A stretch of DNA of 64,000 nucleotides, from the IMG/VR virus record IMGVR_UViG_3300023491_000002; one strand, given 5' to 3'. Numbering within the stretch: the stretch's first letter is position 1; each line of letters begins with the position of its first letter. This DNA is from a virus. This document shows, piece after piece, positions 58,452 through 58,563 of the stretch. A program made the position numbers and the translations under genes. The notes below the pieces were generated by a model. The model made no database searches and was not told the origin of the DNA. It saw only the letters and a list, made by a program, of their open reading frames with translations.

Positions 58452-58563
58452 AAAGGAGAGAAGAGGGAGGAAAAGAGAGGGAGAGAAAAGGGGAGAAAAG
58501 AGGGGGACTATAGGGGGTAATAAGAGGGGATATGAGTAGGTGAGTATTGGTGGGTGATAAGAG
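58452..58563 (+). repeat. Homopurine/homopyrimidine tract (56 nt of pure A/G at 58452-58507, purine-rich to 58563) with four G4-G5 runs (58490-58529) giving G-quadruplex/H-DNA potential
   Basis: AAAGGAGAGAAGAGGGAGGAAAAGAGAGGGAGAGAAAAGGGGAGAAAAGAGGGGGA has no pyrimidine on the plus strand. G-runs GGGG, GGGGG, GGGGG, GGGG are separated by 8, 6 and 8 nt. Confidence 0.9.

Follow-up and report, generated by a model that had tools for sequence, protein, structure and literature searches.

A single-copy polypurine and G-run element at a gene-block boundary of a crAss-like phage, and matching sequences in other phages

Tailed phages share proteins across host phyla; to our knowledge, no DNA signal shared by them across host phyla has been described. 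The present analysis concerns an intergenic element in a 64,000-nt stretch of viral DNA (IMG/VR record IMGVR_UViG_3300023491_000002, the whole of which is called the window below) belonging to a crAss-like phage. The element is made up of a polypurine tract, a core in which two G runs enclose a fixed six-nucleotide loop, and a 3′ arm without C. The primary origin of phage T7 consists of two tandem phage promoters followed by an AT-rich stretch, the cohesive ends of phages lambda and P2 are G-rich on one strand, and polypurine, Shine–Dalgarno (SD)-like stabilisers of mRNA 5′ ends (STAB-SD) are known from phage SP82 and from cryIIIA in Bacillus subtilis. Precedents also exist for the formation of hybrid G-quadruplexes and of primers driven by G runs (PMC3488243, PMC4176368).

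The element of the window resembles mitochondrial CSB II (the second conserved sequence block) in several respects. Its G runs would be on the non-template strand for a rightward transcript, the purine-rich RNA is computed to give an unusually stable hybrid, and its position is a strand-switch or origin-like one, with AT-rich DNA following; two G runs suffice for an RNA:DNA hybrid quadruplex. Unlike CSB II, which does not require a fixed loop, the element has a fixed A(C/T)TATA loop; it also spans phages of very different replication systems, often beside terminase genes, and the promoter-to-primer relationship is only putative in the window.

The polypurine tract and its conserved core

The tract forms an extended 5′ arm to a cis element that is conserved, occurs once and stands at the head of a rightward gene block. 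In the window the element has the following parts, all on the + strand.

58452–58507, +: arm of pure A/G that makes up the element’s 5′ flank, of unusual length in the window; kept in three clades
58490–58529, +: four G runs making up a G-quadruplex motif, starting at 58490 (G4), 58502 (G5), 58513 (G5) and 58526 (G4), with loops of 8, 6 and 8 nt
58502–58517, +: core GGGGGACTATAGGGGG, a 16-mer at the 3′ end of the tract, which defines at least 120 IMG/VR matches
58518–58563, +: 3′ arm without C, rich in G, A and T, of like composition in clades 2 and 3 and across other lineages
58447–58587, +: C-depleted stretch with a single C (58508) in 141 nt

The preliminary description of this DNA had reported a 56-nt polypurine tract and a G4-G5-G5-G4 quadruplex motif, and both are real. 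The 56 consecutive purines, A or G only, form the sole purine or pyrimidine run of at least 18 nt in the 64-kb window; such a tract is far beyond chance, the expectation being about 2e-12 with equal purine and pyrimidine frequencies assumed. The quadruplex motif follows only the extended N1–12 rule, since its loops of 8, 6 and 8 nt make it fail the strict G3+N1–7 rule. It is the only extended motif of this type on either strand of the window, of which it also reaches the highest G4Hunter score (1.8). With the G-quadruplex energies of ViennaRNA, the four runs are predicted to fold as a quadruplex (−23.4 versus −8.9 kcal/mol). The count of 2 C in about 110 nt given earlier has to be corrected: 58452–58563 holds one C, and the depletion is wider. 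The second-highest G4Hunter peak of the window is a nine-G run, GAGGGGGGGGGTATTAC, at 63317–63325.

A search for the tract in related phages, proposed as a check on the preliminary description, gave a positive result. About 20 IMG/VR relatives (94–99% aa identity in a neighbouring gene) have an identical or nearly identical tract in the same place, and it is present in two further clades. Clade 2 (65% aa identity in the neighbouring gene) carries a tract of 58–70 nt in the same position with a different sequence. Clade 3 (71% aa identity in the other neighbour; a 94,976-nt Logan contig), found by a protein search with the 184-aa neighbour, has 19+13+24 purines with two interruptions; an alignment-based search with the 158-aa neighbouring protein revealed no further clades in IMG/VR. 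Between clades 1 and 2, the tract has diverged by 21%, with 12 transitions and no transversions, as against 102 transitions and 135 transversions in the flanking non-coding DNA (Fisher p = 6e-5); since there are no transversions, selection on the tract maintains purines rather than sequence. The refuting outcome named in the preliminary description, a tract absent from close relatives or variable in them, does not apply: the tract stays in its place, its substitutions preserve purines, and it is not neutral.

Selection for the G runs and for the fixed loop accompanies that for purines. The core, GGGGGACTATAGGGGG, is the same in the consensus of all three clades, with ATTATA in a single contig (L025), and the four G runs are kept in all three; pyrimidine interruptions of the tract are tolerated in clade 3 and in part of clade 2.

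These comparisons bear on two explanations that concern the tract itself. An intramolecular triplex (H-DNA) in the homopurine–homopyrimidine tract, to which the preliminary description had pointed by calling the tract mirror-like, is highly improbable. With 56 nt of pure purine, the tract exceeds the length of about 15 bp expected of H-DNA, and it contains an 11-nt perfect mirror repeat, GGAAAAGAGAG G GAGAGAAAAGG, extending to 22-nt arms with three mismatches. The mirror score relative to shuffled versions of the tract is, however, marginal in the window (p ~ 0.05) and at chance level in clade 2 (p ~ 0.6–0.8); most purine arms of the wider family are only 15–25 nt in length, and the pyrimidine interruptions noted above break the tract in other clades.

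A tract without function, either low-complexity DNA made by slippage or a coding segment rich in K, E, R and G, is hardly credible. One relative (L030) has a 12-nt internal duplication within the tract, and purine-only codons specify K, E, R and G; against this stand the divergence by transitions alone and the conservation of position and core in three clades and across phages. No + strand open reading frame (ORF) with a plausible start spans the tract, and conservation of a minus-strand ORF at 58423–58785 is unlikely because of indels between clades in 58564–58790. Coding or recoding was rejected, as six-frame translation and reassignment of TAG, TGA or TAA give no ORF across the tract. A search of the whole window against Rfam gave no match at the gathering threshold, with only chance-level matches at E ≤ 5 in 57900–59300, and a tRNA search found nothing at the tract.

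The preliminary description overlooked that the constrained part is the 16-mer and not the tract, and that this 16-mer marks an element of many unrelated phages.

Distribution and gene neighbourhood of the element

IMG/VR was searched with the exact 16-mer GGGGGACTATAGGGGG and with the 16-mer preceded by 12 required purines, each search giving at least 120 matches. These counts are lower bounds, and the 47 lineages distinguished below are sequence clusters among the matches listed; since the family is defined by the exact 16-mer, diverged members are missed. The 16-mer with its purine 5′ flank is present in at least 120 IMG/VR contigs of at least 47 lineages, with G+C contents of 0.29–0.67, where chance would give about 0.01 occurrences of the 16-mer with 12 upstream purines (IMG/VR being taken as about 60 Gb, our own estimate). 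In bacterial and archaeal genomes amounting to 596 Gb, the same pattern is matched only 28 times, mainly on contigs of 8–95 kb in metagenome bins labelled as many phyla, Bacteroidota, Bacillota, Proteobacteria, Cyanobacteria and Planctomycetota among others. On the same estimate of the size of IMG/VR, the element is at least 40-fold denser in viral than in cellular sequence.

The layout common to the family is a purine arm, G5–7 ACTATA G5–7, a C-free G/A/T arm of about 15–20 nt and then AT-richer DNA, with AT enrichment at +30 to +80. The purine arm is about 15–25 nt in the family versus 51 nt upstream of the core in the window. At least four runs of three or more G are found within 45 nt of the core in 41 of the 47 listed lineages. 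The A(C/T)TATA loop is specifically preferred and is not an artefact of the query: a G7-N6-G7 scan for loops other than poly-G returned ACTATA at no fewer than 12 previously known loci and ATTATA, its one-transition variant, at eight new loci, any other such loop occurring at most twice among the matches listed. The element is intergenic and has one copy per locus.

A sequence model of the element, built from 39 lineages, was run on the window, clade 3 and chosen phage sequences. It detected the element a single time each in the window and in clade 3, and found no copy in the whole of cr127_1 (Crevaviridae; the nearest GenBank genome, with 38% aa identity in the DNA polymerase), the whole of Ralstonia RSB3, the first 4 kb of PhiCrAss001 or the region from the RNA polymerase (RNAP) gene to the capsid gene of Sphaerotilus R1. 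Among GenBank phages, there was no nucleotide match to this region of the window or to the flanks of eight other lineages, except for one terS gene, and no cultured phage carrying the element was found in these comparisons. A description of the motif was not found in Rfam or in the literature searchable by sequence or by topic, which is not proof of its absence.

The divergent junctions of two of the phages without a detected copy have peculiarities of their own. Beside that of PhiCrAss001 (L443, MH675552), at 120–220, there is a G-rich stretch, CATAGGGGGTAGG ... GGGGGAGGTGGGGTTGGTGTATATAC, which is faintly like the 3′ half of the element and is undetected by the model. In cr127_1 (L203, MT774393.1), the junction (2850–3700) contains AT-rich repeats that switch sharply from purine-rich to pyrimidine-rich at about 3185, and the tiny ORFs annotated at 3228–3740 look like artefacts of the composition of the junction.

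Genes downstream of the element usually have its G-rich strand as their sense strand: of 136 downstream ORFs, 91 run in the orientation of that strand, versus 54 of 148 upstream ORFs (the ORF calls of this neighbourhood analysis are crude, especially at GC-rich loci). The element usually heads a gene block and, by inspection, is located at a divergent junction in about half of the lineages. At least 19 of the 47 listed lineages (tested proteins together with BLAST-linked members) have a gene for the terminase large subunit (TerL) no farther than about 4.4 kb away, in varying orientation; among 20 neighbouring proteins tested, from 20 lineages, 14 are TerL proteins of several PHROG families. 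Other neighbours include helicases and, in a phiKMV-like phage, RNAP followed by the portal gene. In one lineage (L128), a terS homologue begins about 0.4–0.5 kb downstream of the element; in another (L264), the order is terminator, element, small ORF, TerL-family ORF and a 712-aa ORF, the last taken by us to be the portal.

Such surroundings could belong to a sequence-specific protein recognition site marking the start of the late or packaging module, namely a cos/pac-like or direct terminal repeat (DTR)-boundary site for terminase, or a target of a late transcription factor. The G runs and ACTATA would then be read as DNA sequence or shape, with rigid G tracts around a flexible TATA step. 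This explanation is rather doubtful, and yet the fixed loop and the terminase neighbourhood argue for it almost as strongly as the evidence argues for the opening by transcription described in the next section. The single copy and strong viral enrichment also favour it, and the gene order in L264 is that of a classic cos position; like cos and pac sites, the element is one per genome, intergenic and frequently just upstream of terS–terL–portal. The crAss-like phage PhiCrAss001 packages by DTRs (PMC6235969). At one contig end (L064, IMGVR_UViG_3300045988_024150; 14338–14382), a complete Illumina TruSeq universal adapter is fused to GGGAAGGGGGGACTATAGGGGGG, the junction being 6 nt upstream of the G run; this is either adapter sequence left untrimmed at a natural end of the DNA or an artefact of assembly. 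Several other contigs end 39–300 nt from the core.

The offsets of these ends are not fixed, however, and no defined termini map to the element, the adapter junction being the only hint of one. Since the adjoining TerL proteins are of different families and each lineage has its own TerS and late regulators, one and the same site in phages of more than 10 host phyla would be unexpected; known cos and pac sites are lineage-specific, whereas the core of the element does not differ between unrelated terminase families or between host phyla. In its orientation relative to TerL the element is also inconstant (downstream or upstream with both on the same strand, or upstream with the two on opposite strands). 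No TerL gene is located within 5.5 kb of the element in the window, and the element of the phiKMV-like phage is between RNAP and portal, not at the expected genome end. The contig breaks of the window’s clade (starts at 56406, 57244, 57744 and 57820, and one inside the tract) are scattered over 56.4–58.5 kb and coincide with a hypervariable repeat; because of this scatter no defined terminus can be read for the clade, and a genome end there was rejected as a candidate.

Another alternative, attractive for crassviruses yet very unlikely, is a structural promoter or entry site for the virion-packaged RNAP of crAss-like phages, at which a sense-strand G-quadruplex would expose the C/T strand as a single-stranded template. 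The RNAP gp66 of the crAss-like phage phi14:2 transcribes single-stranded DNA efficiently and double-stranded DNA poorly, and the early transcripts share no upstream motif. The window encodes giant proteins typical of crassviruses (+ strand ORFs of 2877 and 4416 aa), and its element is unique and at a block boundary. Many phages outside the crAss-like group also carry the element, however, among them temperate ones with integrases and a phiKMV-like one that has a T7-type RNAP of its own; the element heads a block directed towards late genes, the replication block being likelier early; and its absence from cr127_1 and from the first 4 kb of PhiCrAss001, including the divergent junction, is also contrary to this explanation.

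A T7-type RNAP promoter was rejected, as the element is single-copy and the recurring promoter-like repeat in the phiKMV-like phage is another sequence, GGCACCCATRTTGGGTACA. The element shares ACTATAGGG with the −6 to +3 part of T7-type promoters (..CACTATAGGGAGA); these are multi-copy with one consensus, whereas the element is present once in the window and, in other phages, once per locus. No T7-type RNAP was noticed among about 18 annotated ORFs of the window. In three phiKMV-like contigs (L099, L259 and L270), GGCACCCATRTTGGGTACA is present as a tandem pair shortly before the element and a further time at a distance of 1.8 kb (for example, at 40–115 in L099 and at 3703 and 5543 in L259). 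It is taken by us to be the phage’s own RNAP promoter; two such promoter-like repeats, the G-rich element and an AT-rich stretch together resemble the T7 primary origin.

A more general interpretation, which is quite possible if short of probable when taken as a whole, is that G5–7 A(C/T)TATA G5–7 with its arms constitutes an undescribed, host-independent cis signal of tailed phages, with one site in each genome, at the boundary of a module. Common Caudoviricetes machinery or a universal host component would recognise it by DNA or RNA structure together with the fixed loop, and it would start packaging, replication or late expression, the window phage having the longest known version. A core of 16 to 20 nt is identical in phages of 29% to 67% G+C. 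If the signal is a true one, it would serve as a sequence landmark when genomes of uncultured phages are oriented and annotated, give access to the way in which replication or packaging begins in crAss-like phages, and offer a natural test case for the function of G-quadruplexes and R-loops in bacteria. In practice, the site coincides with assembly breaks in gut viromes.

Proposed transcription and opening of the divergent junction

The tract sits in a 2.2-kb gap that separates a leftward replication block from a rightward block. The replication block, on the − strand (26.9–57.07 kb), includes genes for DNA polymerase, a Dda-like helicase and ligase; the rightward (+) block begins at 59.1–59.3 kb and includes an exonuclease gene. 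Cumulative GC skew is minimal at the tract, between the divergent blocks. The gap and its borders contain the following features besides the element.

57150–57900, no strand assigned: hypervariable repeat region between the replication block and the element
57722–58434, no strand assigned: array of near-palindromic 11-mers, TACTYTAAGTA, upstream of the tract
58422–58436, no strand assigned: last TACTYTAAGTA site, 16 nt before the tract; a compensatory change retains the palindrome (GCTACTTTAAGTAGC in L002, GTTACTTTAAGTAAC in clade 2)
58074–58370, +: small ORF of 98 aa, ending 81 nt before the tract; frame open for 127–135 codons in both clades compared, DNA of about 30% G+C
58561–58596, +: AT-rich box GAGGTTTATTTGAATATAATTAAAATACATATTACG immediately 3′ of the element, conserved in clades 1–3
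58688–58712, +: perfect alternating purine/pyrimidine tract of 25 nt, GCGCATACGTGCGTGCGTATATATA, Z-DNA-prone; in clade 2 the alternation is kept with a different sequence
58921–58928, +: Bacteroidetes-type −7 promoter box (TAnnTTTG) for the rightward genes, located some 400 nt past the element; TATCTTTG in the window and TACATTTG in clade 2
59140–59259, +: conserved 39-codon ORF (two-clade alignment), the first rightward ORF past the element, starting 632 nt downstream of the tract

The distance of 700 bp to the first plus-strand gene, as given in the preliminary description, does not hold: the 98-aa ORF already lies upstream of the tract on the + strand, the next ORF starts 632 nt downstream and a 158-aa gene 764 nt downstream. 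Its suggestion of a replication or packaging signal was a reasonable guess, considering the GC-skew minimum here and the terminase genes that often adjoin the element elsewhere.

The RNA:DNA hybrid across the tract is computed to be more stable than the DNA duplex for rightward transcription. The calculated difference between RNA:DNA and DNA:DNA stability is −25 kcal/mol per 60 nt (z = −8), more extreme than anywhere else in the window; for leftward transcription over the tract it is +8.7, and the hybrid is disfavoured. It is tentatively proposed, as the mechanism favoured here though by itself somewhat unlikely, that structure-coupled rightward transcription opens the site, and that in the crAss-like phage the opening serves replication priming. 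It is closely rivalled by the protein recognition site of the preceding section and by the RNA leader considered below. The RNA copy, being purine- and G-rich, would stay paired with the C/T template strand as an R-loop, and the displaced G runs would fold as a G-quadruplex, formed by the DNA strand on its own or by RNA and DNA together as a hybrid. The outcome would be a persistent open site beside the AT-rich box, which may prime or license DNA replication at the boundary of the replication and late blocks, as at mitochondrial CSB II, ColE1 and the T7 primary origin. It is our inference that RNA is made across the element, that such structures arise in vivo and that they serve replication. 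The repeated palindromic 11-mers together with the AT-rich box make the layout origin-like, and an origin has been proposed at the equivalent junction of the prototypic crAssphage (PMC10983915).

Several observations weigh against opening by transcription for replication. GC skew at the site is confounded with the switch of gene strand, and six of the 47 listed lineages have only two or three G runs. The sole conserved host-type promoter box (58921) is downstream of the element, so that transcription across the element depends on expression of the small upstream ORF. A(C/T)TATA is strongly preferred although a G-quadruplex or R-loop needs no fixed loop, which indicates sequence-specific recognition. 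In other phages, terminase genes and not replication genes most often adjoin the element. Finally, cr127_1, the closest crassvirus in GenBank, and the cultured phiKMV-like phage RSB3 are without the element, which is therefore not essential to those lineages.

The consistent sense orientation may also be understood in terms of RNA. A purine-rich, C-free RNA with G runs at or near the 5′ end of the rightward transcript could protect the transcript or tune its translation; an RNA quadruplex, or a 30S subunit bound to SD-like GGAGG/AAGGAG, would shield the transcript from decay at its 5′ end, and without C there would be no loading site for Rho. Such a leader is unlikely, though several features are in line with it. 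An intrinsic terminator or a sigma70-like promoter is often found directly before the element (L229/L309, L264, L080 and L210/L213), as at the start of a transcription unit; the SD-like motifs AAGGAG and GGGAGG are present within the tract; the surrounding 141 nt contain one C; and the RNA quadruplex is predicted to be very stable. Long intergenic regions of phi14:2 yield abundant early non-coding RNAs. The stabilisers of SP82 and cryIIIA are similar in being sense-oriented purine tracts with SD-like motifs in an untranslated region of a transcript, which for the element is a putative phage transcript; they differ in having no G-run–ACTATA–G-run core, and the location of the element at a 5′ end is putative. 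Bacteroidetes, the host phylum of the window phage, make little use of SD pairing, which counts against a leader of this type. Neither covariation nor conserved pairing was found, the fixed ACTATA loop is left unexplained, and the element of the window precedes the conserved promoter box, the next start codon being as far as 632 nt away. In the region of 56.9–59.4 kb, sigma70-type promoters and intrinsic terminators are not enriched, and no terminators were found.

Repeats and other features of the window

Alternating purine/pyrimidine tracts like that at 58688–58712 are modestly enriched downstream of the element in other lineages (p = 0.006); GCGTGCGCGC / GTGCGTAT tracts occur 40–185 nt downstream of it in several unrelated phages. 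The TACTYTAAGTA 11-mers, allowing at most one mismatch, have eight sites in the 0.7 kb of 57722–58434 versus 10 in the remaining 63 kb, and this cluster looks like an operator or iteron array.

The hypervariable region at 57150–57900 causes the distance from the conserved anchor GTCGTATAAGGAGG (at about 57127 in the window) to the tract to range from 1041 to 1589 nt among close relatives, and several contigs break in or near it. Two minus-strand frames are largely open in this region, yet stops or frameshifts interrupt both in every relative; the region terminates in a conserved ..GPPYTTAPPCNAWGNAPVDDS* peptide. The frame is shifted in the window because G6 at 57117 replaces the G5 of aligned relatives. 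An invertible segment was rejected, as relatives show no inversions and vary in length only within 57.15–57.9 kb. GC hairpins at 57088–57147 (GGGGGCATTCCCCC, then GGGGGGT..GGTCCCC) are nearly identical in both clades and are directly upstream of the start of the 184-aa minus-strand gene.

Farther into the replication block, about 4 kb at 50400–54700 contain no standard-code ORF of at least 150 aa, and reassignment of stop codons opens no long ORFs. At −0.15 to −0.19, the AT skew of this segment is strongly negative and differs from that elsewhere in the minus-strand block.

Dispersed over both strands of the window are 11 copies of a motif some 50 nt long (..TTTGCA..CCCCAGTAGGGAA.AAGGACTGGAAGGGAGCGGAAC..).

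7759–7810, −: dispersed motif copy
11793–11852, +: dispersed motif copy
26240–26292, −: dispersed motif copy
26481–26551, +: dispersed motif copy
35841–35901, +: dispersed motif copy
43438–43499, −: dispersed motif copy
43849–43912, +: dispersed motif copy
49352–49416, +: dispersed motif copy
52954–52997, −: dispersed motif copy
57967–58015, +: dispersed motif copy, CCCCAGTAGGGA..GGAGC, an nhmmer match conserved in relatives
58138–58202, −: second, inverted copy at the junction, pairing with that at 57967 as inverted repeat I7

RNAalifold gives no consensus structure for the motif. Inverted repeat I7 was rejected as a special structure, as it amounts to two copies of the dispersed motif and has no compensatory changes. 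Relatives of both clades also have these two copies at the junction, and cr127_1 has neither. Three inverted pairs are formed in all, with members 120–350 nt apart, and the 2877-aa ORF contains two copies in opposite orientations.

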